A stretch of 32,000 nucleotides of DNA from Candidatus Methylomirabilis limnetica (lineage in GTDB: Bacteria > Methylomirabilota > Methylomirabilia > Methylomirabilales > Methylomirabilaceae). The notes beneath the pieces are model-generated. The model was not told the DNA's origin. It was given only the letters and a program-made list of their open reading frames with translations, and did no database searches. A program made the position numbers and the translations under genes. The first letter of the stretch is position 1. The number at the start of each line of letters is the position of its first letter. Where the stretch lies: NCBI RefSeq assembly GCF_003044035.1, contig NZ_NVQC01000017.1, forward strand, positions 1-32,000, read 5' to 3'. Below, one piece after another: positions 1,664 to 14,212 of the stretch.

Positions 1664-3289
1664 TCAGGACAGGTCAGGTGCGGGGCGTAAGGCGACCGGG
1701 ACCTCGATGACTGTCAGCCGGTTTCGCGCTAATGCCTTCTCAACGACCTCACTGATCTGATCGAGCGAATCGACCCGCTCTGCTTCGGCTCCAAACGACC
1801 TTGCCAAGGCGATGAAGTCCGGGTTCGCGAGCGCTTCGTCGCCAAACAGGTGTCCGTCCTTCCGTTGACCATAGTCCACCATACCAAAGGCATTGTCGTT
1901 AAAGAGTAAGACGACAATGGCGGCTCGGTGTTTGACTGCGGTCGCCAGCTCCTGACAGGAGAAGAGAAATCCGCCGTCACCACACAGCGCCAGGACCTGA
2001 CGGTCAGGCTTGGCGAGCTTGGCACCGATGGCTGCCGGCAGCCCGAACCCGATCGTCCCGCTCCCCATCGCCCAGAGAAATGTTCCGGGTTCGTAGACCT
2101 CGAAGTATCTACGCGCCCAGTACGTCGCCATGGTCGAATCGTTGGTTACGATGGCGTCGCGTTTTATCACGTGCCTGATATCTTCGAGCAGCTTCACTTC
2201 GGCAGGGTATGTCGCTCTCACGCTTTCCATGGTCTGCTTTTTTGCCCTGATGACCTCTAGCCCTTCAAAGCCCTGCGGGCGTGACGACTGCTTTTCAAGC
2301 CTTCCGAGAATGTACTCTAAGGTTATACGAGCGTCTCCCACCAGCTCAACGATATGGCTGCCTTGAATGCCTGGATGGGTTTTGGCAAACTGCAGCTCGT
2401 CTATATCAACCCTGACCCAGTGCGGCGGAAGCCTCAATGACCATTTGCCGGTCGATCGGTTGCTGAACCGCGTGCCGACCACGATGGCGAGATCGGCCTT
2501 CTCGATGAGCGCCCGAACGGGTCCCTCCGTCCCCAGATTTCCAAGGGAGAGATCATGAGCCTCAGAGAGCACCCCTTTCCCTTTGATGCTGGTGAGCACC
2601 GGGGCGTTGAGCAACTCGGTCAGTCGTTTAATCGCCTGGCCCGCCCCTGAGGCGATCGCGCCACCCCCGGCATAGATGACAGGCCGCACCGCCCTGGCAA
2701 TCCGCTCGACCGCCTCTGCCAGCCTCTGCGCGTCGGGAAGGGTTGGCGTGTGCGTGACCGGCTGATACGAGAAGGGGGCGGCAAGCTCCGCATTCAGGAC
2801 ATCCACCGGAACCTCAAGGCCATAGGGTCGCGGCCGCCCATGTGCCATCCTGGAGAATATCGCCTGGAGGCTGTGAGGAATGTCTGAGGGTGTCGCCACG
2901 TCGTAGCACGCCTCTGTCACATTCGAAATCAGACCATGCTGGTTTTTGACCTCATGAAGGTCGCCCCAGCCTTTATGCAGATGCGCTTGCTCGATCTGAC
3001 TGGCGATAAGCAACACCGGTGAGGAACTGCAATAGGCTTCCTGCAACCCGACCATGGTGGCGGCAGTGCCGGCTCCTGTGCCTGCTATCACAACTCCAAC
3101 CTTGCCGGTGACCCGCGCATAGGCATCCGCCATGAACGCCGCAGATTGCTCATGACGCACCTCAATAAATCGAACGCCACGTCGCTTGGCGGCATCTGCG
3201 ACAGCGGTGATATGTAGGCCACGTATGCCGAATACGAACTCAACACCTTGAGCTTTGAGGCATTCGGCTATCGTCTCTGCGCCAGTCAT
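1664..3289 (-). CDS. thiamine-diphosphate-dependent enzyme (acetolactate-synthase / 2-keto-acid decarboxylase-like)
   Basis: 541-aa ORF. N-terminal TPP-pyrimidine domain (GVEFVFGIRG...HEQSAAFMADAYARVTGK) and the C-terminal GDG-x24-NDN TPP-binding motif (CGDGGFLFSCQELATAVKHRAAIVVLLFNDNAFG). GGAG-type RBS upstream of the ATG at 3289. Confidence 0.85.
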   Translation of the reverse strand: MTGAETIAECLKAQGVEFVFGIRGLHITAVADAAKRRGVRFIEVRHEQSAAFMADAYARVTGKVGVVIAGTGAGTAATMVGLQEAYCSSSPVLLIASQIEQAHLHKGWGDLHEVKNQHGLISNVTEACYDVATPSDIPHSLQAIFSRMAHGRPRPYGLEVPVDVLNAELAAPFSYQPVTHTPTLPDAQRLAEAVERIARAVRPVIYAGGGAIASGAGQAIKRLTELLNAPVLTSIKGKGVLSEAHDLSLGNLGTEGPVRALIEKADLAIVVGTRFSNRSTGKWSLRLPPHWVRVDIDELQFAKTHPGIQGSHIVELVGDARITLEYILGRLEKQSSRPQGFEGLEVIRAKKQTMESVRATYPAEVKLLEDIRHVIKRDAIVTNDSTMATYWARRYFEVYEPGTFLWAMGSGTIGFGLPAAIGAKLAKPDRQVLALCGDGGFLFSCQELATAVKHRAAIVVLLFNDNAFGMVDYGQRKDGHLFGDEALANPDFIALARSFGAEAERVDSLDQISEVVEKALARNRLTVIEVPVALRPAPDLS

Positions 3290-3316
3290 CCCGTATCTCC
3301 GTCACCCCCTCCCTCA

Positions 3317-3340
3317 CCCTCCCCCCTCGGAGGGGGAGGG
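3317..3340. repeat. GC-rich 9-bp hairpin (CCCTCCCCC/GGGGGAGGG) within a C/G-run element
   Basis: CCCTCCCCC-ctcgga-GGGGGAGGG lies between the aminotransferase stop and the TPP gene start. No U-run follows on the transcribed (minus) strand. Confidence 0.5.
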
Positions 3341-3465
3341 GACCAGTGGGGGGGGACTTTCGGGGCAATGATATCTCATTTCATGCGTTTGTATTAGGCG
3401 ATCATTCGAGAATGGTAGGGCCCGCCCTGTTGGGTCAGTGAGCGGCATCTGGAAGAGGTCGCCGC

Positions 3466-4653
3466 CTATTTGATCTGCGCGATGGCGGCATCCAGGATCA
3501 CAATGGCCTGATCCACATCCTGCGGGCTGATAATCAGAGGGGGCATGAACCGGATTGTCTGAGGTGGGATTGGGCTCAGCAGCAGGCCCCGTTCGCAGCA
3601 GGCCTTGGCCATCGCCAGGGCTACCGGCTTGGTAAACTCTATCGCCAGAAGAAGGCCCCGGCCCCGGACTTCCTTCACAATATCCCACTCCTCTTGCAAA
3701 CCCAGGAGTCGCTCCCGGAAGTAGCTTCCCACCCGCACCGCGCTCCCTGAAAGATCTTCCTTCACAATAAATCGAAAGACGGCTGTGGCCACCGCACAAC
3801 AGAGTGGATTCCCCCCGAAGGTAGAGCCGTGATCTCCCGGGCCAAAACAGGCGGCCCGATCGTTCGCCAGGAGCGCGGCAATGGGAATCCCGCCACCCAG
3901 CCCCTTGCCCACCGTCATAATGTCCGGCTTGATGCCGGAGACCTCGTGAGCCCACAGGGTCCCTGTTCGGCCGCAGCCCGTCTGGACCTCGTCCAAAATC
4001 AGCAGGAGGCCCCGTTCGTCGCAGAGATCTCGGACCTCCTTCAGATAGTTCTCAGTCGGAACGTTGACCCCACCCTCACCCTGGATCGGCTCCAGTAAGA
4101 TGGCGCAGGTTCGCTCTCCTACAGCCGCTCGCAGGGCCGCGACATCGTTGAACGGGACATGGCTGAACCCTTCAGGGAGCGGGGTAAAGGGCGCCTGGTA
4201 CTCCGGCTTGCCCGTCGCGGCCACCATCGCCAACGTTCGGCCATGGAAGCTCTTCAGCGCCGAAATGACCTCGTAGGCTCCATTCAGGTGCAGCTTGCCA
4301 TACTTCCGGGCTAGCTTGACCGCTCCCTCGTTGGCCTCAGCTCCACTGTTGCAAAAGAAGACTTTTGCCAGACCGCTCGCCGAGGTCAGTAGCTCTGCCA
4401 ACTCAATCTGTGGGGTTGTATAGACATCCAGGCTCGCCAGGATTAGGCGCTCCGACTGCTCTCGAAGAGCCTCTACGATCACAGGATGGCAGTGGCCCAG
4501 GCTGCAGGCGGCCCATCCGGCAATGAAGTCGAGATACTCCTTCCCGACCTCATCCCACACCCTCGCCCCTTCGCCACGGACGAGCGTCACCCCAAGACGC
4601 CGGTGGCCCGTGTCCATGAAATACCGTTTATCCAACTCTACCCAATGGTTCAT
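3466..4653 (-). CDS. class-III PLP aminotransferase (acetylornithine/ornithine aminotransferase-like)
   Basis: MNHWVELDKRYFMDTGHRRLGVTLVRGEGARVWD...CNSGAEANEGAVKLARKY...LDEVQTGCGRTGTLWA...MTVGKGLGGGIPIAA. The start at 4653 overlaps the upstream stop as ATGA, which I prefer over the ORF-track start at 4686. Confidence 0.85.
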   Translation of the reverse strand: MNHWVELDKRYFMDTGHRRLGVTLVRGEGARVWDEVGKEYLDFIAGWAACSLGHCHPVIVEALREQSERLILASLDVYTTPQIELAELLTSASGLAKVFFCNSGAEANEGAVKLARKYGKLHLNGAYEVISALKSFHGRTLAMVAATGKPEYQAPFTPLPEGFSHVPFNDVAALRAAVGERTCAILLEPIQGEGGVNVPTENYLKEVRDLCDERGLLLILDEVQTGCGRTGTLWAHEVSGIKPDIMTVGKGLGGGIPIAALLANDRAACFGPGDHGSTFGGNPLCCAVATAVFRFIVKEDLSGSAVRVGSYFRERLLGLQEEWDIVKEVRGRGLLLAIEFTKPVALAMAKACCERGLLLSPIPPQTIRFMPPLIISPQDVDQAIVILDAAIAQIK

Positions 4654-5456
4654 GATCCGTCCCGATCCAGGCTCAGGGCCAGGCACTTGGGCCCGCCTCC
4701 GGCCTTGAGAAACTCCGTGGTCTCGACCTCGTGAACGTGATACCCGGCCTCGGTGAGCGTCCGAGACAGGTGGGGACAGCCGGCGTTGACGACCACTGAC
4801 CGCCCGATGACCAGTGCATTGCAGGCCAACCGTTTAGCCTCCGCCTCCGTCACCGGGAGAAGCTCAGGAATAGCCTCTTTCAGGAGCCGCTGCGAGGCGG
4901 GACTGAACGCCTCCGGATAGTACGCTGCCCGGCCCGGTTGGAGCGGACACAAGCAGGTGTCCAGGTGATAGAACCATGGATCGGCGAGCTCCAGGGAATG
5001 GACGCGTAGCCCCAGGAGCTCCGCCAGAAGCTGATGGGCATGCAGCTCCGAACGAAAGCGGTGCCCGGCAAACAGGTCATTCCCGCAGAAGAGCGCATCC
5101 CCCTCCCCTTCAAAGAAGGCGGGTTCGGGAAGACAGGCCACCCGATAGTTCCGCTCTGCAAACCACTGTGTGCAATGAGGAACTTCCGCCTCGCGCTCAC
5201 GGTACCGGAACCGGCTACTCACAAAGAGGCCATTCACCAGGAGCCCGGCGTTGGCGGTAAAACAGAGGTCAGGCAACCCCGGAACCGGTGGCAGGAGCTC
5301 CACCTGAACCTGTAGCCCTTCGGTGAGGAGTCGATAGAGCGCCTCCCACTGCCTCACGGCGACTCCCCGGTCCGCCTGGTGCCCTCGATCCATCCAGGGA
5401 TTGATCTCGTAGTAGATCCCGTAATGGTCGGGACGACACATCAGTAGCCGGGTCAT
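4650..5456 (-). CDS. guanidino-group-modifying (amidinotransferase-fold) enzyme, ArgZ/AgrE N-domain-like candidate arginine dihydrolase
   Basis: 268 aa. The N-terminus LMCRPDHYGIYYEINPWMD, ...PDLCFTANAGL..., and the C-terminal GGGPKCLAL (catalytic Cys context) are typical of this superfamily. Confidence 0.65.
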   Translation of the reverse strand: MTRLLMCRPDHYGIYYEINPWMDRGHQADRGVAVRQWEALYRLLTEGLQVQVELLPPVPGLPDLCFTANAGLLVNGLFVSSRFRYREREAEVPHCTQWFAERNYRVACLPEPAFFEGEGDALFCGNDLFAGHRFRSELHAHQLLAELLGLRVHSLELADPWFYHLDTCLCPLQPGRAAYYPEAFSPASQRLLKEAIPELLPVTEAEAKRLACNALVIGRSVVVNAGCPHLSRTLTEAGYHVHEVETTEFLKAGGGPKCLALSLDRDGS

Positions 5457-5458
5457 GG

Positions 5459-6949
5459 CTACACGTCGGTACTAAGGCCTTGAGCCATTCTGATCTCGCG
5501 ACCGTGATTGACGGTCCACGCCACTTTGTGCGTCAGGAGATCCAACAAAGGCCAGGAAGCCGGAACACCCGTCCCGCTCTTCTTTATCCCGCCGAATGGC
5601 AGATGTACCTCGGCGCCGATGGTAGGCAGATTCCAGTACCCGACGCCAAACTCACACTCCTCCCGAAGACGACGGGCGATCCGGTAATCTTCGGTGATTA
5701 CGGAACAGGCCAGGCCATACTCCACATCGTTGTGGATGGCCACGGCCTCTTCCAGCGTTCGGAAGGGGATCAGAGCAACATGCGGCCCAAAGACCTCTTC
5801 GTGGAGCACCCTGGCATCTCTCCGATGAGCCATGCGATAGATGAAGGGGCTGAAGAAGTAGCCGTGCCGATAGGCCCCTTCCTCCAGGCGTCCGCCATCC
5901 AAGAGTACCTCGGCCCCCTCCTGCTTCGCCAGCAGGTTATAGAAACTGACCTTCTTCATCGCCGCCTCGTTGATGAGCGGGCCCATAAAGACCTGAGGAT
6001 CGAGCGGATCGCCGATGACGATCCGCCGCGCCATGGCGACAAAGGCCTTCGCGAACTCCTCCATCCGGCTCTCATGGATAATGAGGCGAGAAGCCGAGGT
6101 GCAGCGCTGCCCTGTCGTCTTGAAGGCGCTGAGTATCGCGGCCCGGACGGCCAGATCAAGATCGGCATCCTGGCAGACGATCATCGCATTCTTCCCGCCC
6201 ATCTCACAGGCGTACATCTTGCGATAGTCCTTGGCGCACGCCTCCTTGATCCGTGATCCCACCTCATACGAGCCGGTGAAGAGTACTACCTCGACGTCAG
6301 GGTGGGTCACCAATGGCCACCCTGCATCCCCTCCCATGCCCTGGACGAGATTCAGAACGCCTGGAGGAAGCTCGGCCTGCTCAAAGCACTCAACGATCTT
6401 CTCCCCCACCAACGGGGTGTTCCCGGACGGCTTGAAGACCACCGTGTTCCCTTCGAGCAGGGCCGGGGTGATCAGCCAGATGGGAATCGCAAAGGGGAAA
6501 TTCCAGGGGCTGATAACCGTGACCACCCCTTTCGGCTTGCGGAACATGTACGCATCCTTCTCGGCGAGCTCCGAGGGGAGGGCCTGACCGGAAGGAAGCC
6601 GCGCGTGGCCGAACATATACTGCGCCATGTGGATCCCCTCGACGACATCGGCCTTGGCCTCGTTGTACGCCTTGCCGGCCTCGGTTGCCACGAGGCGGGT
6701 GATCTCTTCAGTCTGGGCCTTAATCGCTTCAACGAATCGATCGAGATACTCCCCCCTTCTCACCCGTGACAGCGCGCGCCAGCCATGAAAAGCCGCCTTC
6801 GCGGCCGCGACCGCCTGCTCAGCATCCTCCCGATTCGACAAGGCTGCAACGCCAAGCACCTGATCGAATTTGGCGGGATTACGACTTTCAAACCTGGCTC
6901 CCCCGACCGCCTCCACCCATCTCCCACCAATATAATTCTTACCCTCCAT
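5459..6949 (-). CDS. NAD(P)-dependent aldehyde dehydrogenase
   Basis: 496 aa. Contains FTGSYEVG, the catalytic Glu context ACEMGGKNA and the catalytic Cys context GQRCTSASR. It ends 2 nt before the next gene's start, so the two are likely operonic. Confidence 0.9.
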   Translation of the reverse strand: MEGKNYIGGRWVEAVGGARFESRNPAKFDQVLGVAALSNREDAEQAVAAAKAAFHGWRALSRVRRGEYLDRFVEAIKAQTEEITRLVATEAGKAYNEAKADVVEGIHMAQYMFGHARLPSGQALPSELAEKDAYMFRKPKGVVTVISPWNFPFAIPIWLITPALLEGNTVVFKPSGNTPLVGEKIVECFEQAELPPGVLNLVQGMGGDAGWPLVTHPDVEVVLFTGSYEVGSRIKEACAKDYRKMYACEMGGKNAMIVCQDADLDLAVRAAILSAFKTTGQRCTSASRLIIHESRMEEFAKAFVAMARRIVIGDPLDPQVFMGPLINEAAMKKVSFYNLLAKQEGAEVLLDGGRLEEGAYRHGYFFSPFIYRMAHRRDARVLHEEVFGPHVALIPFRTLEEAVAIHNDVEYGLACSVITEDYRIARRLREECEFGVGYWNLPTIGAEVHLPFGGIKKSGTGVPASWPLLDLLTHKVAWTVNHGREIRMAQGLSTDV

Positions 6950-7168
6950 CGATCTCCCTCCTGAAAACGATAAGAGCAGGTCACCTCTCGGCTTCCTGCT
7001 CTTGGTATTGTATTAGGTTTCTCACCCCCGCAACTACTGACTAAGCCTTTACGCCGCCCACCACCCGATCCCGCCCCCGTCACAGTCAAGATCCGATGGG
7101 CACTGATAATCTAGCGCGAACGACAAGCGAGGGCAAGCTGTTTCGCTAAAAGTCAGCCCGATAGTTCC

Positions 7169-7197
7169 TTGACATATTGGAAGGGGCAGATTAGATT
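7169..7197 (+). promoter_or_regulatory. candidate sigma70 promoter of the plus-strand operon
   Basis: TTGACA (7169-7174), a 17-nt spacer, then TAGATT (7192-7197), about 95 nt upstream of the ATG at 7294. Confidence 0.35.
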
Positions 7198-7293
7198 ACA
7201 ACTAGCTGCAACATAACGGTTTATAATACCTTTCCTGATCCTTGGTAGGCTTCTCGATACCGTCGTTGATCTTCTCATGTCGGAGAGGGCGCC

Positions 7294-8103
7294 ATGCAGA
7301 GCAATGCCAGACAAAAGCGATTTGACGCCTTTTGGAAGAAGGTCGAACGGAAGGTTCATCGGCATCAAGCGATCAGGAACAACAGGTTCTGCGCCTGGTT
7401 CAATCGTGGGGAAGCCAACACCGCTCAAGTCATCCATTTCCTTGAACAGTTCGGGGTCTTTTCCAAGCATTTTGTCCCGATACAAGCCAAGCGAGTCGCC
7501 CGCGCGACAAACATTGAAAGCGAAAGGCTGGCACGCCATATCCTGGTCAACGAAAGCGGTGTGAGACTCGGCCCGGATAAGACCCCGGAGAATCAGACGT
7601 TCAGAACGGAGTGGGCCCATATCGAGTGGTTGCGCCAGACGTGCGCGCCACTCCCACTGGATCCGGAACGGTTAGGCAACTGGAGAACCGCTACCCCACC
7701 GACACGGCGCTTTCTGATTGAGCTTGAGAAGGCGTATGGAAGCCTCGATTGGCTGGTCGCCGGCGGCGCCAGTTACGGAATCGAGACGTGGGCGGCGTGG
7801 GGAATCGGGAAAGGTGAGGAGGCGGAATCCAAGAATTTCTGGAAGCAGCTCATCATTGGACTGAAGGGCTATAATGAAACACAGCGTCTGCTCCATGGCC
7901 TGGAGCCGATCCCTCTCGGCTTTTTCGAGCATCACTTCGAGCTTGAAACAGGGCATGGGGAGAATGTGTATGGCGAGCTCCTGAAAAGCTTTTCTCGCCC
8001 AAGGTTCGATGAAGATAAGTTTATAGAGGGCGGGCGAAGAGCGCTTGATGCCCTTTATATTTTCTGGGAGGGCCTTAACTCAGCCAGAAAGGCTCTTGCG
8101 TGA
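7294..8103 (+). CDS. haem-oxygenase-like fold, iron-containing redox enzyme family protein (PqqC/CADD/HDO-like)
   Basis: 269 aa and all-helical in character. Carboxylate/His pairs are spaced as in di-iron HO-like proteins: LVNESG, EWAHIEW, YGIETWAAW, FFEHHFELETGHGE. Confidence 0.55.
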   Translation: MQSNARQKRFDAFWKKVERKVHRHQAIRNNRFCAWFNRGEANTAQVIHFLEQFGVFSKHFVPIQAKRVARATNIESERLARHILVNESGVRLGPDKTPENQTFRTEWAHIEWLRQTCAPLPLDPERLGNWRTATPPTRRFLIELEKAYGSLDWLVAGGASYGIETWAAWGIGKGEEAESKNFWKQLIIGLKGYNETQRLLHGLEPIPLGFFEHHFELETGHGENVYGELLKSFSRPRFDEDKFIEGGRRALDALYIFWEGLNSARKALA

Positions 8104-8801
8104 CGGGCGCGAGGGGTTCGATGAGGTTCGCTCCCGGCGTGACGCTCGTATCGCCGACCCTCGATGCAGGGCTAGCGCGCAGGATCATTGAGGAGACGGA
8201 TCCATTCTCGACCCGACAGCATCTGGCGTACCCATCGGATCACGATGGGGCACAGGTGCATCTCGACGCCTACTTCTCCACCGAAGCGCTTGTTCAAATC
8301 CCGGAATTCGCTTCATGGCTCGTCGAAGACGTTGTGTTATGGATGACGGCGAAGGACCTCCGGCCTCAACTCATATTTGCTCCTGGCACTGACGCCGTCC
8401 GGGTCTTCGTCGAGAGACTTTCAAAAGCCGTCGGTGCCAAGCCGGTCTATCTCGAGACCAAGCCCAGCGGGCGATTCGGTAACACTATCGAGGGGAGTGT
8501 TCCCACCGATGCCTCGGTGTTGACGTTTAATCTGACCAGTTTGACCGGTGGCCGGTGCATCGGGTTTCGATTGCCTGAAGCGGCCACCCATGCCGGCGGT
8601 AACGTCATCGGCACGGCCGCGATTGCCCTCGGGACCTCACCGATTAACGAGGAGCTTCGAAGCAGATTTTCTGACAACCTCTACATCGCGTTCCACGTCG
8701 CGGTCACGAATCATAACCCGGATGCCTGCCCCGCGAATGCGCCCAGACTGCGTCCCTGGCAAGAGGCGAATGCGGAAATCATTGCTCGCCTCAGAAAGTG
8801 A
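8100..8801 (+). CDS. hypothetical protein (weak phosphoribosyltransferase-like topology)
   Basis: 233-aa ORF whose GTG start overlaps the upstream stop (GTGA); an alternative ATG lies at 8119. The segment LIFAPGTDAVRVF..LSKAVGAKPVY...SVLTFNLTSLTGG resembles a PRTase core but lacks the acidic DD pair. Confidence 0.5.
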   Translation: MTGARGSMRFAPGVTLVSPTLDAGLARRIIEETDPFSTRQHLAYPSDHDGAQVHLDAYFSTEALVQIPEFASWLVEDVVLWMTAKDLRPQLIFAPGTDAVRVFVERLSKAVGAKPVYLETKPSGRFGNTIEGSVPTDASVLTFNLTSLTGGRCIGFRLPEAATHAGGNVIGTAAIALGTSPINEELRSRFSDNLYIAFHVAVTNHNPDACPANAPRLRPWQEANAEIIARLRK

Positions 8802-8807
8802 AGCGCC

Positions 8808-9578
8808 ATGACCACTGCCTCGATCAAAGACCAACTCACCTATCCGGTCAGATTCCTGGACGGCGTCTCCGATGCCAGACACATCATCGGCATGGGAAGG
8901 AGTCTAGGGAGGAGCGACGAGGAGATTCACAAAGGTCTCGAACTTCGCAAGGTCAGGTGGGCGTACTATGCGCTCGCCCTTGGCCGGCACGAGATCCATG
9001 ACTCTGGCGAGACGCTGTTCATCCCGCGAACGGTCCAAAGACCGGACTACGAGTTCGAAATCGCTCTCCTTCTCGACCGGGCGACGAAGGCAGGGTGGAC
9101 TGAAGAAGAGGCAGAGGATTTTCTGCAGGAGTATGGTCGCGTGACCATCCTCAACGATCTCTCCTGCCGGTGTCTTCAGGCAGAGGACAATCTACTTGGG
9201 CTTGGCCCTGCGCGGAGCAAGTCCATCCTTGGGAAGGTGCTCGGGCCGCGTTTTCTGCCGTATGCGGAGTTCGCGAAGCGAAACTCTCACATTGTCCTGC
9301 GGGTGAATGGCGAGGTTCGTCTGGAAGCCCAGGCATGCACCGACTCGACATTATGGACCTTTCCAAAAATCAGCTCCTACCTCTCTCAACAGCCCTTGAT
9401 TCTCGAAGCCGGAACGCTCATCGGGTCCGGGACCTTTGGCGGCGGCTCGATCGCCGAAACGTCCGGGAAGTATCCCTGGCTTGCAGATGGAAATACGGTA
9501 GACGTCGTGGAGATGGAGGTCGAGGGGATTGGGGTCCTGAAAAACCGCTTCACGAGAAAGAGCGAAGAGGATGGATAG
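8808..9578 (+). CDS. fumarylacetoacetate-hydrolase (FAH) family protein, small type
   Basis: 256 aa. Contains DYEFEIALLL, ILNDLSCRCLQ, GPARSKS and LIGSGTFGGG, arranged as in the FAA_hydrolase domain. Confidence 0.7.
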   Translation: MTTASIKDQLTYPVRFLDGVSDARHIIGMGRSLGRSDEEIHKGLELRKVRWAYYALALGRHEIHDSGETLFIPRTVQRPDYEFEIALLLDRATKAGWTEEEAEDFLQEYGRVTILNDLSCRCLQAEDNLLGLGPARSKSILGKVLGPRFLPYAEFAKRNSHIVLRVNGEVRLEAQACTDSTLWTFPKISSYLSQQPLILEAGTLIGSGTFGGGSIAETSGKYPWLADGNTVDVVEMEVEGIGVLKNRFTRKSEEDG

Positions 9579-10254
9579 GACGCAGGTGGGACCAGGCGGC
9601 TTGAGCGAGGCGGAACGGGATCTGCTCCTGGCAGAACTGTGGGGCACATTTACGTTGAAGCTCGATCATGCGGCACTCGCGACCCAGAGCCTCCGGGAAA
9701 CCGCCTATCTGTTCATGCGCGCACTCCAGGGGGGTCGGGTGACCTACAAGAGTCACGATGTCAATGATCCAGAGGCCCCTTCCAGCATGAAGACCGTCGG
9801 AATCCAGCTCGGCAGGATGCCGGGGGCCGGCTATATCGCGCCGGTGGAGGGAATCGACCGGAAGGGAGAGTCGCAGGTCTCACACATTATCAAGTGCTGC
9901 GGGGAAGGGATCCAGCACGTCGCGCTCCGCATCGAAGGAGGATCGATCGAAACGTACCGTCGGATCACGGAGCGGCTGGGGGTCCGCTACATCACCCCCA
10001 TCCTGTATGACGATCGCAGCCGGCTCTTGCAGATGTTCACCGGTTCGCTCTTCCGCTCGCCGAATCCAGCGGCAGGCCCCTTCATCGAGCTCAACCAACG
10101 CCTCGACCTGTTTGATCACGATCCCACTCATTTCCACCATGCCACGGTCCAGGCGCTGTATCGGTACATGGAGGAGCTCCAGGAGGCCGGCGCACCGATC
10201 TGGATCCTCGACTTCGACGCCATCCCGCCGGACTGGGACCCGTTCGCAGAATGA
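9571..10254 (+). CDS. 4-hydroxyphenylpyruvate-dioxygenase-like protein, catalytic C-terminal domain only
   Basis: 227 aa. Contains LDHAAL (first His), GIQHVALRI (second His) and LLQMFT....PFIELNQR (Glu), the HPPD 2-His-1-carboxylate layout. There is no N-terminal barrel. The start overlaps the upstream gene by 8 nt (ATGGATAG). Confidence 0.65.
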   Translation: MDRTQVGPGGLSEAERDLLLAELWGTFTLKLDHAALATQSLRETAYLFMRALQGGRVTYKSHDVNDPEAPSSMKTVGIQLGRMPGAGYIAPVEGIDRKGESQVSHIIKCCGEGIQHVALRIEGGSIETYRRITERLGVRYITPILYDDRSRLLQMFTGSLFRSPNPAAGPFIELNQRLDLFDHDPTHFHHATVQALYRYMEELQEAGAPIWILDFDAIPPDWDPFAE

Positions 10255-10315
10255 GACGAGACCGACGCCAGTTCGTTCTACGTCGGAAAGAGAGACAGGC
10301 GAGGACCGACACGCC

Positions 10316-11719
10316 ATGACGCATCGTGAGCTTCGTCGAGAGTTAATCGCCCGATGCGGCTACAATCTTTTTGAACTCAAGCCGTCGGAAATTTGCGTGG
10401 ATCTCTTGACCGATTCTGGAACTACGCCGCTCTCTGAAGCGCAGCGGAAAGCCGTCTCACGAGTGCTCAGGAAGCGCAGAACGAATGAACGGGCGTATGC
10501 CGGCAACGAGAGCGCTGAGCGACTGCGAGCGGCACTTCGAGAGGTCTTCCCCGATTTTCCGTATGTGATTCTCGTCCATCAGGGGCGAGGAGCCGAGCGG
10601 GTGTTCTGCGATGGATTTATTCGATCAGGTCTCTGGACGTTACCCCAAGATCTTTGGAGGCAAGAGACACCGCATCAGAAGCGACGAAGGCCCATAGTTA
10701 TCGGCAACGCTCCCTTTGATACGACTCGGGGCAACATCGAGGCGGCAGAGGCGGAGATCATTGACGCAACGACCCGCCTCTGGCATGATCCCAATACACC
10801 CTTGCCTTTCAAGGGCAATGTCGATGTTGAGCTACTCGATCGCTCGTTGATTCGTGATGGCGATCGCATGGCGTGCACGTTGATCACCGCAACGTGCAAT
10901 ACGGCGGCCGGGCAGCCAGTAAGTACGAGCAATTTCGGCGAGGTGGGGTTGCGGACCTCTTCGGCTGGAACGCTTCTCGTGGCCGACATCGCCAGGATCT
11001 TCCTGAACGCTTTTCTCAATAAGAAGAACCTCCCTTACGATGTCGGTATCACCATACAAGGAATCGTAAAGCAATCGTTGACGCCTGTCGACCTCTGTCT
11101 CATGTCCGCCAAGAAAGACGCGCTGAGTCCAGGCGGTGGGTGCATCCTTATGAAGGATCGCGCGCTCTACGAGGCCCTCCTACCCTACGCGATACTTTCT
11201 GAAGGGGGAAAGGATTACGGGGGCATGACCACCGAGACCATGGAAGCGTTTGGCGTAGGGCTGAAGGAAGGCCTCAACGAATCGTTTCTGGAAGAGTACA
11301 CCGGGCAAGTTGCCTATCTCGGTGAGGGCTTGAAATCTGCCGGCTGGCCGATGTATGAGCCTTTCGGGGGACATGCGGTATACCTCGATGCAGGAGCTGC
11401 GTTGGACCACCTCGCACCGGACGACTTACCTGGTCAGGCTTGCGCGGTTGAACTCTACATCGAGTGTGGCGTCCGGGCCTGCGAGCTGGGCACCGCGATG
11501 GCCGGTCGCGATCCCAAGACGGGAAAGAACCGCCATCCCAGGTTTGAGTTTGTGCGGCTTGCGCTTCCACGCCTGCGCTATACACGAGACGACCTTGACC
11601 GCGTCATCAAGGGCGCAGAGCGATTGTGGAAACGACGGCGCGACATCCATGGAATGATGTTTGTCGAACCTGAACCGCCAGGCCTCAGACACTTTACCGC
11701 AACATATAAATGGAAGTGA
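10316..11719 (+). CDS. beta-eliminating lyase family PLP enzyme (tyrosine phenol-lyase / tryptophanase-like)
   Basis: MTHRELRRELIARCGYNLFELKPSEICVDLLTDSGTTPLSEAQ... includes the DLLTDSGT motif and the PLP-Lys context MSAKKDALSPGGG. The ORF-track start at 10007 overlaps the upstream gene and reads as Arg/Ser-rich nonsense. Confidence 0.8.
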   Translation: MTHRELRRELIARCGYNLFELKPSEICVDLLTDSGTTPLSEAQRKAVSRVLRKRRTNERAYAGNESAERLRAALREVFPDFPYVILVHQGRGAERVFCDGFIRSGLWTLPQDLWRQETPHQKRRRPIVIGNAPFDTTRGNIEAAEAEIIDATTRLWHDPNTPLPFKGNVDVELLDRSLIRDGDRMACTLITATCNTAAGQPVSTSNFGEVGLRTSSAGTLLVADIARIFLNAFLNKKNLPYDVGITIQGIVKQSLTPVDLCLMSAKKDALSPGGGCILMKDRALYEALLPYAILSEGGKDYGGMTTETMEAFGVGLKEGLNESFLEEYTGQVAYLGEGLKSAGWPMYEPFGGHAVYLDAGAALDHLAPDDLPGQACAVELYIECGVRACELGTAMAGRDPKTGKNRHPRFEFVRLALPRLRYTRDDLDRVIKGAERLWKRRRDIHGMMFVEPEPPGLRHFTATYKWK

Positions 11720-11743
11720 GTAAACTCAGGATGGGGCGAAAAC

Positions 11744-13000
11744 ATGGCTGAGAATGTGCCAAAGATGGTGAATCTGACACGGACCGAGCGACGGGTCCGG
11801 TCTGATTACCAGACAGCTCTTACGGACTGGCACTCTACTGGCCGTCCTCCGAGGGGCCTTTCGAGCTACAAGCTCGAGTTCGGCACGGAACTCCTGATGG
11901 AGCACCCTCCAACCGCCATCGTCGAAAGCGCGACGATTCCCGCCGACCACCCCTTGTTCAAAGCACACGTCGAACGGCCAATAGGGGAAAGTCGCCCTCT
12001 CCAGAGGCAAGCCTTTCACGTAGCAGAGATGGCCACGTCCGGCTCCTTCGTCCCCATCCTCTCAAGTAACGATGTCACCATTTGGGTCTGCAATGGTGAT
12101 TTCGGGGAAGCCGGGAAGTGGCAACCGCCCTCTCGTCATGCGGACTGCGATGAACTCTATTTTGTCCATCGAGCCCACCATCCCCTGAGCCTCATTACCG
12201 ATTTCGGACTGCTCAAGGAAGTTCGGGAGGGCGATTTCGTTTTTCTGCCCCGAGGTACCACCTATTCGTTTCTCTTTACCGGAAGGGTTTCTATCCTCCT
12301 CTACGAAATCCCGAAACGGCTGTTTCGCCCCTACGACTACTGGATGGGGGATCAGCAGCCCTGGCCCTTTTCGCCGGCTGCTCCGATTCCGCCAGAACCG
12401 AAGCCTCTTGCTGGGCTCCATCCGCCGCTCAGCGGCGACGAGGCCACACAGGTTGTCGTCAAAAGACGGCTGGGCGGTTTCACGTTGCTCAAATATGCAG
12501 CGTCGGTCTTCGATGTCGTGGCGTGGGAGGGAGAGGTGTGGCCATTCATCTTGCGCCTCAACGATATAGTTGCGCTGTCCTCACCACACGTTCATCTCGA
12601 TCCGAAGAAGCTCACCGTCTTCGTAAGCGAGGATGAAGGAATGGCATTGCAGGTTTTCCTGCCCCGGTGGATCCACAGCCTGCCGTATCACCATCTCAAC
12701 TGGGTGGATGAGGTTCTCTTCAACCACAAGGGGTACAGCGCGCGGCCCGAGATCACCGACGGCTTCATGACCTTACATCCGGTCGGTCTGGCCCATGGCC
12801 CAGATTTGAAACTCCTGGCCAACATCGCCCGGAAAGAGATACCCAGCCCAAAGGACCTGCATTTCCTGGAAGAGATCGCCGTGATGGTGGAATCCAGGTC
12901 GCCGTTCGTTGTCCTGAAGGATGCGGAGAATGTGGAATTGAAGGGGTACGACCAATCCTGGTACCAGCAGTCGCTTGAGAGTAACTACTCAGGTGTTTAG
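11744..13000 (+). CDS. homogentisate 1,2-dioxygenase-family cupin protein
   Basis: 418 aa. Contains LPYHHLNWVDEVLFNHKGY....GFMTLHPVGLAHGPD, which matches the HGD signature YHRN..E....G.Y......SLHP.G.PHGP. The last 7 codons and the stop are supplied by repeat copy B. Confidence 0.7.
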   Translation: MAENVPKMVNLTRTERRVRSDYQTALTDWHSTGRPPRGLSSYKLEFGTELLMEHPPTAIVESATIPADHPLFKAHVERPIGESRPLQRQAFHVAEMATSGSFVPILSSNDVTIWVCNGDFGEAGKWQPPSRHADCDELYFVHRAHHPLSLITDFGLLKEVREGDFVFLPRGTTYSFLFTGRVSILLYEIPKRLFRPYDYWMGDQQPWPFSPAAPIPPEPKPLAGLHPPLSGDEATQVVVKRRLGGFTLLKYAASVFDVVAWEGEVWPFILRLNDIVALSSPHVHLDPKKLTVFVSEDEGMALQVFLPRWIHSLPYHHLNWVDEVLFNHKGYSARPEITDGFMTLHPVGLAHGPDLKLLANIARKEIPSPKDLHFLEEIAVMVESRSPFVVLKDAENVELKGYDQSWYQQSLESNYSGV

Positions 13001-13144
13001 GCTGAAGGCTGAAGGTTCTAAATTATCTCGCAAGGCACGAATCTAGCCATTCAAGACCTTTTCGGAGTTTTGTATGATCACGCATGACTTACCCCTAAAA
13101 GCCTTCAGCCTTCAGCCTTCAGCCTATCTACCTGAGTTAGTTAC
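12981..13144 (-). mobile_element. TIR element with four-helix-bundle gene remnant, copy B
   Basis: On the plus strand it starts GTAACTACTCAGGTGTTTAGGCTGAAGGCTGAAGG and ends CCTTCAGCCTTCAGCCTATCTACCTGAGTTAGTTAC. The minus-strand interior is ATGCGTGATCATACAAAACTC (MRDHTKL) joined to ...GLEWLDSCLAR*. Flanks are GCTTGAGA / AATTGAGA. Confidence 0.8.
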
Positions 13145-13160
13145 AATTGAGAAATGCTGA

Positions 13161-13727
13161 ATGCGCTGTCGCGAGGCGCTGGAAGAGACAATGACTCCGT
13201 TTGGAGTGGGGACCAAGCTGGTTATCGCTGTTGGGCTTGCCGCGCTGCTGATCGGCGCAGGAGGGGTGACGATGGAACTGAAGAGTCAGGCTTTTGCCGC
13301 TGGTGAAATGATTCCAGCCAAGTACACGTGTGATGGGCAAGACATCTCCCCACCACTAAGCTGGTCAGACCCTCCGGCCGGGACAATAGAGTTTGCCCTC
13401 ATCTCGGACGATCCTGATGCGCCGGTCGGCACGTGGGTCCACTGGGTCATGTGGAACATCCCCGCCGGCGCCGGCGCACTCGACGAGGATCTACCCAAGA
13501 CCGCATCGCTGCTAAACGGTACCAAACAGGGAACCACCGATTTCCACCGGATCGGCTATGGCGGCCCATGTCCCCCTTCTGGGACTCATCGGTATTTCTT
13601 CAAGCTGTACGCGCTCGATACGGCGATGAATCTCCCCGCAAGCACGACCAAGAAGGATCTGGAGAAGGCGATGCAGGGTCATATCCTCGGCCAAACGGAG
13701 TTGATGGGAACATACCGCCGGAGGTGA
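13161..13727 (+). CDS. YbhB/YbcL-family phosphatidylethanolamine-binding (PEBP) protein, secreted or anchored
   Basis: Contains IPAKYTCDGQDISPPLSWSDPPAGT..FALISDDPDAP.GTWVHW..WNIP...GYGGPCPPSGTHRYFFKLYALD. The true start is probably the ATG at 13191 (MTPFGVGTKLVIAVGLAALLIGA, signal-like). Confidence 0.85.
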   Translation: MRCREALEETMTPFGVGTKLVIAVGLAALLIGAGGVTMELKSQAFAAGEMIPAKYTCDGQDISPPLSWSDPPAGTIEFALISDDPDAPVGTWVHWVMWNIPAGAGALDEDLPKTASLLNGTKQGTTDFHRIGYGGPCPPSGTHRYFFKLYALDTAMNLPASTTKKDLEKAMQGHILGQTELMGTYRRR

Positions 13728-13729
13728 GG

Positions 13730-14212
13730 ATGGCTGTCGAAAAGGCGTTGCGGCACTATCTGGTACGCCATGGAGAGGCAAAGGCCGACATGGAGGATTC
13801 CGCCAGGCCGCTAAGCGATCGTGGGCGCGATGAGATTCAGCGAGTGGCCAGGCATGCCGCGATCCTGGGACTTGAGGTGGCACAGATACGCCACTCCGGT
13901 AAGGTGCGCGCGCGGCAGACCGCTGAAATCCTGGCCGAACACCTCGCGCCGCGGCTCGGTATTCGACAGATCGAGGGCCTCGCGCCCGGTGACGCGCCGG
14001 ACAGGGCCCGAGCCGAGCTGGAGGCTGCCGGGGAACCGCTGATGCTCGTGGGCCACCTGCCGCACCTGAGCCGCCTCGTCTCGGCTCTGGTGCTGGGCGA
14101 TAACGAGGAGGAGATCATCTGGCCGGATACAGGAACGATGGTCTGCCTCGCCAAGACCGAAAGAGGCTTTCGGCTACTGTGGGTTCTTACCCCTGAACTT
14201 GCTCAAGCGTAG
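13730..14212 (+). CDS. sixA: phosphohistidine phosphatase SixA-like
   Basis: MAVEKALRHYLVRHGEA....RPLSDRGRDE......RHSGKVRARQTAEI...LVGHLP. This has the RHG motif at the N-terminus and is 160 aa. The ATG at 13730 lies 2 nt after the PEBP stop. The ORF-track start at 13433 lies inside the PEBP gene. Confidence 0.8.
   Translation: MAVEKALRHYLVRHGEAKADMEDSARPLSDRGRDEIQRVARHAAILGLEVAQIRHSGKVRARQTAEILAEHLAPRLGIRQIEGLAPGDAPDRARAELEAAGEPLMLVGHLPHLSRLVSALVLGDNEEEIIWPDTGTMVCLAKTERGFRLLWVLTPELAQA

Follow-up and report, generated by a model that had tools for sequence, protein, structure and literature searches.

A compact ring-cleavage operon of Candidatus Methylomirabilis limnetica as a possible divergent homogentisate-type pathway

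What chemistry is encoded by six neighbouring genes that recall the degradation of tyrosine, when most of their products belong to families without a characterised member? This question is raised by positions 7294-13000 of a 32,000-nucleotide stretch of DNA from Candidatus Methylomirabilis limnetica (hereafter the window; contig C22 of the 2.55 Mb, 99% complete genome analysed here). Proteins nearly identical to those of the window carry the annotation Candidatus Methylomirabilis, phylum NC10. A first-pass annotation of the window had described the six genes as one set that fits no known pathway. The core of the set does map onto one, namely the succession of 4-hydroxyphenylpyruvate dioxygenase (HPPD), homogentisate dioxygenase (HGD), an isomerase and a fumarylacetoacetate hydrolase (FAH). 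We propose that the operon encodes a compact, highly divergent and partly non-orthologous homogentisate-type catabolic route, a proposal to which we give about an even chance, and that its substrate is most likely an aromatic 2-oxo acid, 4-hydroxyphenylpyruvate derived from tyrosine. The proposal is built on the fold or family of each protein, the retention of catalytic residues and the conserved association of the genes, all of which are established here. The six open reading frames (ORFs) run in the same direction and are as follows, each with the match behind its assignment.

7294-8103, + strand: candidate haem-oxygenase-like diiron oxidase/oxygenase (HDO), 269 aa; PF14518, weak
8121-8801 (the ORF also opens at GTG 8100), + strand: protein of predicted phosphoribosyltransferase (PRT) fold, 226 aa; without a Pfam or NCBIfam family
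8808-9578, + strand: small FAH-family hydrolase, 256 aa; PF01557
9571-10254, + strand: half-size HPPD-like VOC protein, 227 aa, catalytic barrel only; hhalign to HPPD
10316-11719, + strand: tryptophanase-family beta-eliminating lyase dependent on pyridoxal phosphate (PLP), 467 aa; NF009709
11744-13000, + strand: divergent HGD-family cupin, 418 aa; PF04209 HgmA_C

The family calls made from the letters alone held when each protein was searched against Pfam and NCBIfam profiles. The VOC protein, which would catalyse the first step of the proposed route, had been described as an HPPD homologue without its N-terminal domain, and the alignments bear this out: the family profile matches a 379-aa HPPD with 96.4% probability over HPPD residues 166-372 only (hhalign), with the DH, QHxALR, LLQxF and FxExxQR motifs and the C-terminal helix in register. 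The whole N-terminal barrel and an internal segment of about 30 residues are missing, and at 227 aa the protein falls short of the two-barrel architecture of HPPD (about 350-400 aa). The HPPD model TIGR01263 (4HPPD) matches it at 21.9 bits (cut-off 277; E = 1e-4) over profile positions 217-266. The iron ligands H33, H116 and E173 are invariant in the family, which consists of about 25 clusters, all annotated as 'hypothetical' and without a Pfam domain. Searches of the PDB with phmmer, using the VOC, HDO and PRT-fold proteins as queries, returned matches at chance level only.

The cupin is, to judge from its profile scores, a member of the HGD family and not an equivalog of HGD, as it matches PF04209 HgmA_C at 29.9 bits (cut-off 21) and the hmgA equivalog at 49.2 bits (cut-off 510). 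The profile of the HGD-like family aligns with HGD from Pseudomonas putida and human at E = 1e-23 across most of its length. Alignment to 1ey2 and 3zds places the human residues H292, Y333, H335, E341, H365 and H371 at H284, Y315, H317, E323, H345 and H351 of the window protein. The iron ligands (H317, E323, H351) and the substrate residues (H284, Y315, H345) are therefore kept; Y315 is present in at least 90% of the HGD-like sequences and the other five residues are invariant. The family comprises about 50 clusters in 5.8e9 proteins.

The hydrolase matches PF01557 FAA_hydrolase at 88 bits (cut-off 23.9). It had been described as the small 256-aa type and not a true fumarylacetoacetase, and it indeed reaches only 15.3 bits against the fumarylacetoacetase equivalog TIGR01266 (cut-off 375), the true enzyme being about 420 aa long and having an N-terminal domain. 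Its ExE, ND..R..Q, RSK and GT motifs fall on the metal and catalytic positions of 6iym, 8sky and FAHD1, and the Glu-x-Glu/Asp metal site and the Lys/Arg residues of FAHD1/HpaG-type enzymes are intact. A family-specific N-terminal stretch of about 60 aa is common to the orthologues, and those in three metagenomic loci (L009, L029 and L063) are 52-60% identical to the window protein, N-terminal extension included. Thus, in the VOC, HGD-like and FAH proteins, all the catalytic residues that could be checked are intact.

The rest of the genome offers no canonical counterpart. Searches of the 99%-complete genome found no TIGR01263 HPPD, no TIGR01262 maiA, no GST_N domain and no phenylalanine hydroxylase, nor a glutathione synthetase above cut-off; it follows that the zeta-type glutathione S-transferase (GST) isomerase of the classical route is not available. 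The locus itself lacks a maleylacetoacetate isomerase and an aromatic aminotransferase, as had been noted before. The operon is the only HPPD/HGD-like equipment of the genome, and among 121 genomes sampled from the phylum a canonical HPPD was found in one, where it scores below the family cut-off. A CoA-transferase pair is present in the genome and could take acetoacetate. Literature searches on Methylomirabilis together with homogentisate, and on gene clusters combining HDO and FAH, found nothing. Because four core families follow the homogentisate logic stepwise (HPPD, HGD, isomerase, FAH, with the PRT-fold protein in the isomerase slot), because their checkable catalytic residues are intact and because the canonical genes were not found, we read the core as a non-orthologous homogentisate-type route.

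In the implied order of its chemistry, its clustered genes, its HPPD-type site and motifs, its HGD residues and its FAH-fold hydrolase, the operon resembles the homogentisate pathway (hpd/hmgA/hmgC/hmgB) of Pseudomonas putida and Vibrio cholerae. It differs in that HPPD is cut down to its catalytic barrel and carries the internal deletion, the hydrolase is of the 250-aa FAHD/HpaG-like type and not a 420-aa fumarylacetoacetase, the HGD scores 49 bits against the hmgA cut-off of 510, and a PRT-fold protein stands in place of the GST-zeta isomerase, in a genome that appears to lack glutathione synthetase and GSTs. We therefore regard the operon as a variant of the homogentisate-type pathway assembled from uncharacterised families, with two lineage-specific additions, the HDO and the lyase.

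The proposed route would proceed in a series of steps. The His/His/Glu iron site of the VOC protein would turn the 2-oxo acid into homogentisate or a close analogue, and the HGD-like cupin would open the ring to give a maleylacetoacetate-type product. The FAH protein would then cleave the 1,3-dicarbonyl, either on the cis (maleyl) form directly or after isomerisation, for which the PRT-fold protein is a candidate glutathione-independent catalyst, unless it serves as an accessory of the hydrolase. No dedicated aminotransferase would be required, since 4-hydroxyphenylpyruvate could come straight from tyrosine metabolism. The missing isomerase may thus be explained by direct hydrolysis of the maleyl product or by the PRT-fold protein. 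For the former there is a precedent in HbzF of the gentisate variant in Pseudomonas alcaligenes, where the maleyl (cis) ring-cleavage product is hydrolysed without a thiol-dependent isomerase (cited in PMC5658364). The substrate of HbzF is maleylpyruvate derived from gentisate, and we liken HbzF to the FAH protein by reaction and not by sequence.

The conservation of the genes bears on whether they form a functional unit at all. Eight other Methylomirabilis genomes carry the order HDO-PRT-FAH-VOC-HGD in the same place, between an arginine-catabolism operon and genes for a phosphatidylethanolamine-binding protein (PEBP) and SixA. This five-gene block is wholly present or wholly absent across the genomes of the genus, and it was not found in two Methylomirabilis genomes that are at least 94% complete. 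Synteny within the genus alone proves little, since it extends to the PEBP, SixA and arginine-catabolism genes on either side, and the genes of the block could in principle be functionally unrelated neighbours under one promoter, an idea to which the clearly late addition of the lyase lends some colour. We consider such a chance juxtaposition highly improbable. The same four families (VOC, HGD-like, PRT-fold and FAH) lie side by side, in shuffled order, in at least three unrelated lineages, the block is all-or-none in the genus, and there is an 8-nt overlap between the FAH and VOC genes. Two unrelated metagenomic lineages, L063 and L031, carry all four families in differing gene orders, and partial sets occur elsewhere:

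L063: VOC-HGD-PRT-FAH, with 60/50/25/60% identity
L031: HGD-PRT-FAH-VOC', the last a VOC relative by hhalign (98.8%)
L009, a Planctomycetia metagenome-assembled genome (MAG): VOC-HGD-FAH
Bradymonadaceae MAGs: VOC-HGD
L028/L029: PRT-FAH, behind hemE-hemH-hemY

The VOC gene adjoins the HGD-like gene in five loci (L009, L010, L011, L037 and L063), and the PRT gene adjoins the FAH gene in L028/L029, L031, L063 and all NC10 operons. The survey of gene neighbourhoods thus shows that the association is conserved elsewhere; the conserved unit, however, is these four families and not the six genes proposed at first, as most Methylomirabilis operons lack the lyase, which is a late acquisition. Every one of the families is rare, and none has a characterised member. 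In L028/L029 (4583-9421), the PRT-fold/FAH pair directly follows hemE, hemH and a hemY-type oxidase; this arrangement was seen in one lineage only and may reflect a connection to tetrapyrroles or a coincidence. A further locus, L033 (DATMXF010000070.1, from a MAG labelled Patescibacteria), is a 4.5-kb contig with FAH-VOC-HGD-PEBP-SixA in the same order as in the Methylomirabilis operon, whose proteins it matches at 78-92% identity; in all likelihood the contig belongs to Methylomirabilis and was binned wrongly.

The second gene encodes the protein that the first-pass annotation could not place. It has no match in Pfam or NCBIfam, PF00156 included, and its family has 19 representatives in 1.8e9 proteins. 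A model predicted by AlphaFold2 from the single sequence was unusable (pLDDT 35), and the model was rebuilt on an alignment of 15 sequences, reaching a pLDDT of 93.1. The top Foldseek matches of this model are orotate phosphoribosyltransferases (E = 2e-9, TM about 0.56-0.58), and VIA-align gives the same enzymes at Z 15.4 with 174-181 residues aligned. The predicted structure thus assigns the protein to the type I PRT fold, closest to the orotate PRTases. The canonical loop that binds phosphoribosyl pyrophosphate (PRPP) carries two adjacent acidic residues. At this position the window protein has VLTFNLTSLTGG and its relatives have VLxFNGVSxxGRCVG, so that the acidic pair is gone, with FN in place of DD. 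Unlike type I PRTs, the family has its own invariant His/His/Cys-Pro set (H41, P45, G50, H54, G151, C210 and P211 are invariant, and most relatives share a CPxC motif), and its genomic partners are a hydrolase and dioxygenases and not genes of nucleotide metabolism. Its position beside the FAH gene and its invariant Cys and His residues make the protein a candidate for the isomerase, or for an accessory of the hydrolase; both roles are pure inference.

How far the route follows tyrosine, and not some other compound, is less certain, and several observations weigh against the reading we prefer. The HPPD, hmgA and fumarylacetoacetase equivalog models are all far below cut-off, which places the proteins outside the characterised orthologous groups and means that the substrates may differ from 4-hydroxyphenylpyruvate and homogentisate; the substrates named above for the operon proteins are putative. 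Families as rare as these, with 10-50 clusters in billions of proteins, are odd for a general tyrosine pathway and a better fit to a specialised metabolite. The L009 and Bradymonadaceae loci have no PRT-fold protein, which is therefore not always required nearby, and we know of no precedent for an isomerase role in this fold. Outside NC10 the HDO is loosely linked, lying in L025 about 6 kb from, and convergent to, an HGD-like/FAH pair of 30% identity. Lastly, indole, the product of a tryptophanase, has no obvious place in a homogentisate route.

Some of these points would be met if the same types of chemistry (2-oxo-acid dioxygenase, ring-cleaving cupin and C-C hydrolase) acted on a different, specialised aromatic substrate, such as a substituted hydroquinone-acetate, a gentisate-like compound or an aromatic amino acid derivative made by the HDO. 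The low equivalog scores speak for this, as do the extreme rarity and patchy distribution of the families across phyla, the accessory nature of the operon within the genus, and the surroundings of distant HGD-like/FAH pairs, which sit with a luciferase-like monooxygenase, a flavin reductase, a CoA ligase, a thiolase and IclR/TetR regulators, as is typical of xenobiotic and aromatic catabolic clusters. We regard it as possible but rather doubtful, given that all the iron- and homogentisate-contacting residues of human and P. putida HGD are conserved, that the HPPD signature motifs are kept, including the Gln residues beside the ligands, and that the NC10 locus has neither a transporter nor a regulator for an exogenous aromatic compound.

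The gene at the head of the operon raises a different alternative. The HDO scores 20.5 bits against PF14518 (cut-off 28.9), and 10 of the 11 members of its family match the model, with a best E of 1e-7; its nearest named clusters in the Atlas are PF14518/TenA/PqqC. Seven residues (E87, E99, H109, E164, H214, E218 and H221) are invariant in 11 sequences from at least two phyla. They probably constitute the ligand set of three His and three to four carboxylates, with the helices assigned by inference, and the helix carrying H-x3-E-x2-H aligns weakly to BesC (7twa). With the characterised HDOs (UndA, BesC, SznF, AetD, SktA and CADD), a group defined by a seven-helix haem-oxygenase fold, the protein shares PF14518-type similarity and the invariant 3His/3-4 carboxylate set, and its H-x3-(D/E)-x2-H spacing is that of His311/Asp315/His318 in SznF (PMC7848743). 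It differs from them in belonging to a separate family without a characterised member (10 clusters in 5.8e9 proteins) and in heading a ring-cleavage operon and not a natural-product cluster. Homologues outside NC10 adjoin a thiamine pyrophosphate (TPP) enzyme, a CoA ligase, a thiolase and a flavin reductase. A partial ORF after the HDO homologue in L027 was considered as a relative of the PRT-fold protein and rejected, as it is not PRT-like.

Characterised HDOs act mostly on amino and fatty acids, including derivatives of tryptophan in the cases of AetD and SktA, and almost all are natural-product enzymes; an HDO and a tryptophanase occur together in the aetokthonotoxin cluster (PMC13108848, PMC11869266). 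Accordingly, the operon could be biosynthetic, with the HDO (and the lyase, where present) modifying an aromatic amino acid, the dioxygenases and the hydrolase tailoring a secreted or cofactor-like small molecule, and the PRT-fold protein perhaps attaching or binding a phosphoribosyl or nucleotide moiety, since the PRT fold usually handles PRPP or nucleotides. The lyase would suit such an operon, since in diverged operons it is better conserved (92-95% identity) than the genes around it, and since no relative above 40% identity occurs elsewhere. We judge a biosynthetic role to be quite unlikely. The four core genes occur without HDO or lyase in other lineages, the locus has no carrier, ligase, methyltransferase, exporter or other tailoring gene, the PRT-fold protein has lost the acidic pair that binds PRPP, and an FAH-type C-C hydrolase following a ring-cleaving dioxygenase is a hallmark of degradation. 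In the homogentisate-type route, the HDO at the operon head in Methylomirabilis would probably feed the route through an O2-dependent reaction whose substrate is an aromatic amino or aryl acid.

The fifth gene had been assigned to the tyrosine phenol-lyase (TPL) family. That it encodes a beta-eliminating PLP lyase stands: it belongs to the Beta_elim_lyase family, matches the tryptophanase subfamily model NF009709 at 401.9 bits (cut-off 285) and aligns full-length with TPL and tryptophanase (TnaA) structures in the PDB (E = 1e-76 to 1e-80), retaining the PLP lysine pair (SAKKD) and the equivalents of the catalytic Tyr71 and of Arg100. It falls far below the equivalog cut-offs of both enzymes, reaching 284.8 and 318 bits against the TnaA models TIGR02617 and NF053783 (cut-offs 825.8 and 750) and 315 bits against the TPL model TIGR02618 (cut-off 720.7). 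The assignment to TPL itself does not hold, as Thr124, Arg381 and Phe448 of TPL (Citrobacter freundii numbering), which bind phenol, are replaced by Asp, Leu and His. This is the tryptophanase pattern of an Asp, a hydrophobic residue and a His in the indole pocket (Asp137, Ile396 and His463 in E. coli), and the specificity residues are thus of the tryptophanase type. The lyase further carries insertions of about 20 and 7 residues near residues 45-50 and 106-126, and it sits in a ring-cleavage operon, unlike TnaA with its tnaCAB-type locus.

Among 19 other genomes of the genus, the lyase was found only in G000 and G003, and it occurs in three metagenome contigs. It always lies exactly between the VOC and HGD genes, with a clean junction right after the VOC stop codon, and outside the genus none of the relatives found exceeds 40% identity. 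In a tree of concatenated FAH, VOC and HGD sequences, the lyase-bearing operons form part of a derived clade, in which one nested member, G006, also lacks the gene, and the deeper branches are all without it. The lyase is therefore clearly a late, lineage-specific insertion into the operon, and in the homogentisate-type route it would open the operon to a further input, either tryptophan, with pyruvate, NH4+ and indole as products, or another aromatic amino acid related to it.

If the homogentisate-type reading is right, there is a second, compact evolutionary solution to the homogentisate route, concealed among 'hypothetical proteins', and HPPD chemistry needs one barrel only, a point of interest since HPPD is targeted by herbicides and drugs. 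Three orphan families (the VOC half-protein, the PRT-fold protein and the HDO clade) would receive their first functions, and catabolism of amino acids or aromatic compounds would be documented in nitrite-dependent methanotrophs, a group whose metabolism is commonly considered narrow. A stronger version, which we think unlikely, is that the four-gene module is a hitherto unrecognised, independently assembled homogentisate-type pathway in which the PRT fold acts as a new cis-trans isomerase that needs no thiol cofactor (or has another role new to the fold), the single barrel is a minimal functional HPPD, and a new HDO subfamily performs an undescribed feeding oxidation of an aromatic amino or aryl acid. 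The insertion of a divergent tryptophanase into the operon of one sublineage amounts to a natural experiment. Even with a different substrate, this well-defined and conserved module is a target for enzyme discovery.

Some details of the layout differ from what had been described. The six genes are co-directional, as stated, and of the two overlaps of 4-8 nt that had been reported, the 8-nt overlap between FAH and VOC is genuine, the VOC N-terminus MD+xQxGPGG being kept across phyla. For the second gene, the most likely start is ATG 8121, which follows a ribosome-binding site (GAGGGG) and is where its relatives start too; its 4-nt overlap with the HDO gene therefore probably does not exist. For the lyase, the start is ATG 10316, giving 467 aa, and not the first ATG of its ORF (10007-11719). 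At the 3' end of the operon, an element with inverted repeat ends GGCTGAAGG.../...CCTTCAGCC occupies 12995-13130, directly after and overlapping the HGD-like stop. Orthologues of the HGD-like protein in other genomes are 413 aa long and align only to residue 412-414, approximately, of the 418-aa product, which is consistent with the last few codons having been replaced by this element. A scan of 6900-13400 against Rfam gave no matches, and a terminator scan of the locus gave results at background level. One promoter-like site was noted by its match to the consensus alone:

7169-7197, + strand: TTGACA-17-TAGATT, sigma-70-like, 10 of 12 consensus positions

This site lies about 100 nt 5' of the first gene, inside a 345-nt spacer between the ring-cleavage operon and the divergent arginine-catabolism operon. 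The spacer from the HDO gene to the divergent aldehyde dehydrogenase (ALDH) gene, about 345 nt here, measures about 1.4 kb in M. oxyfera (G008; L013 12579-13959) and about 3.3 kb in G010 (L014 12752-16027), which shows that some genomes have gained additional DNA at this place. The upstream operon (1664-6949, - strand) has four genes, encoding a TPP enzyme, an aminotransferase, a protein resembling dimethylarginine dimethylaminohydrolase (DDAH) or arginine dihydrolase, and the ALDH. The TPP enzyme matches best the 5-guanidino-2-oxopentanoate decarboxylase subfamily (408.7 bits, cut-off 500), and the aminotransferase is of the argD/ornithine type. We read the four genes as a probable catabolic set of the arginine transaminase type, which would account for the TPP enzyme. 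An Ehrlich-type route to 4-hydroxyphenylacetate through the TPP enzyme, ALDH and aminotransferase was considered and rejected, as the TPP enzyme next to the HDO homologue of L025/L026 reaches only 27% identity and the TPP enzyme and aminotransferase of the window are of the types just given.

Downstream, a PEBP/YbhB-type ORF (13161-13727) and the SixA ORF as listed (13433-14212) overlap by about 300 nt; the true start of SixA is probably near 13750, because the SixA model aligns only from residue 108. In G004 (L018/L034 3725-5433), the upstream ALDH appears in tblastn as two overlapping pieces, covering residues 1-334 and 296-496 and lying about 100 nt apart, which points to a frameshift or insertion in that genome, or to a fault in its assembly.

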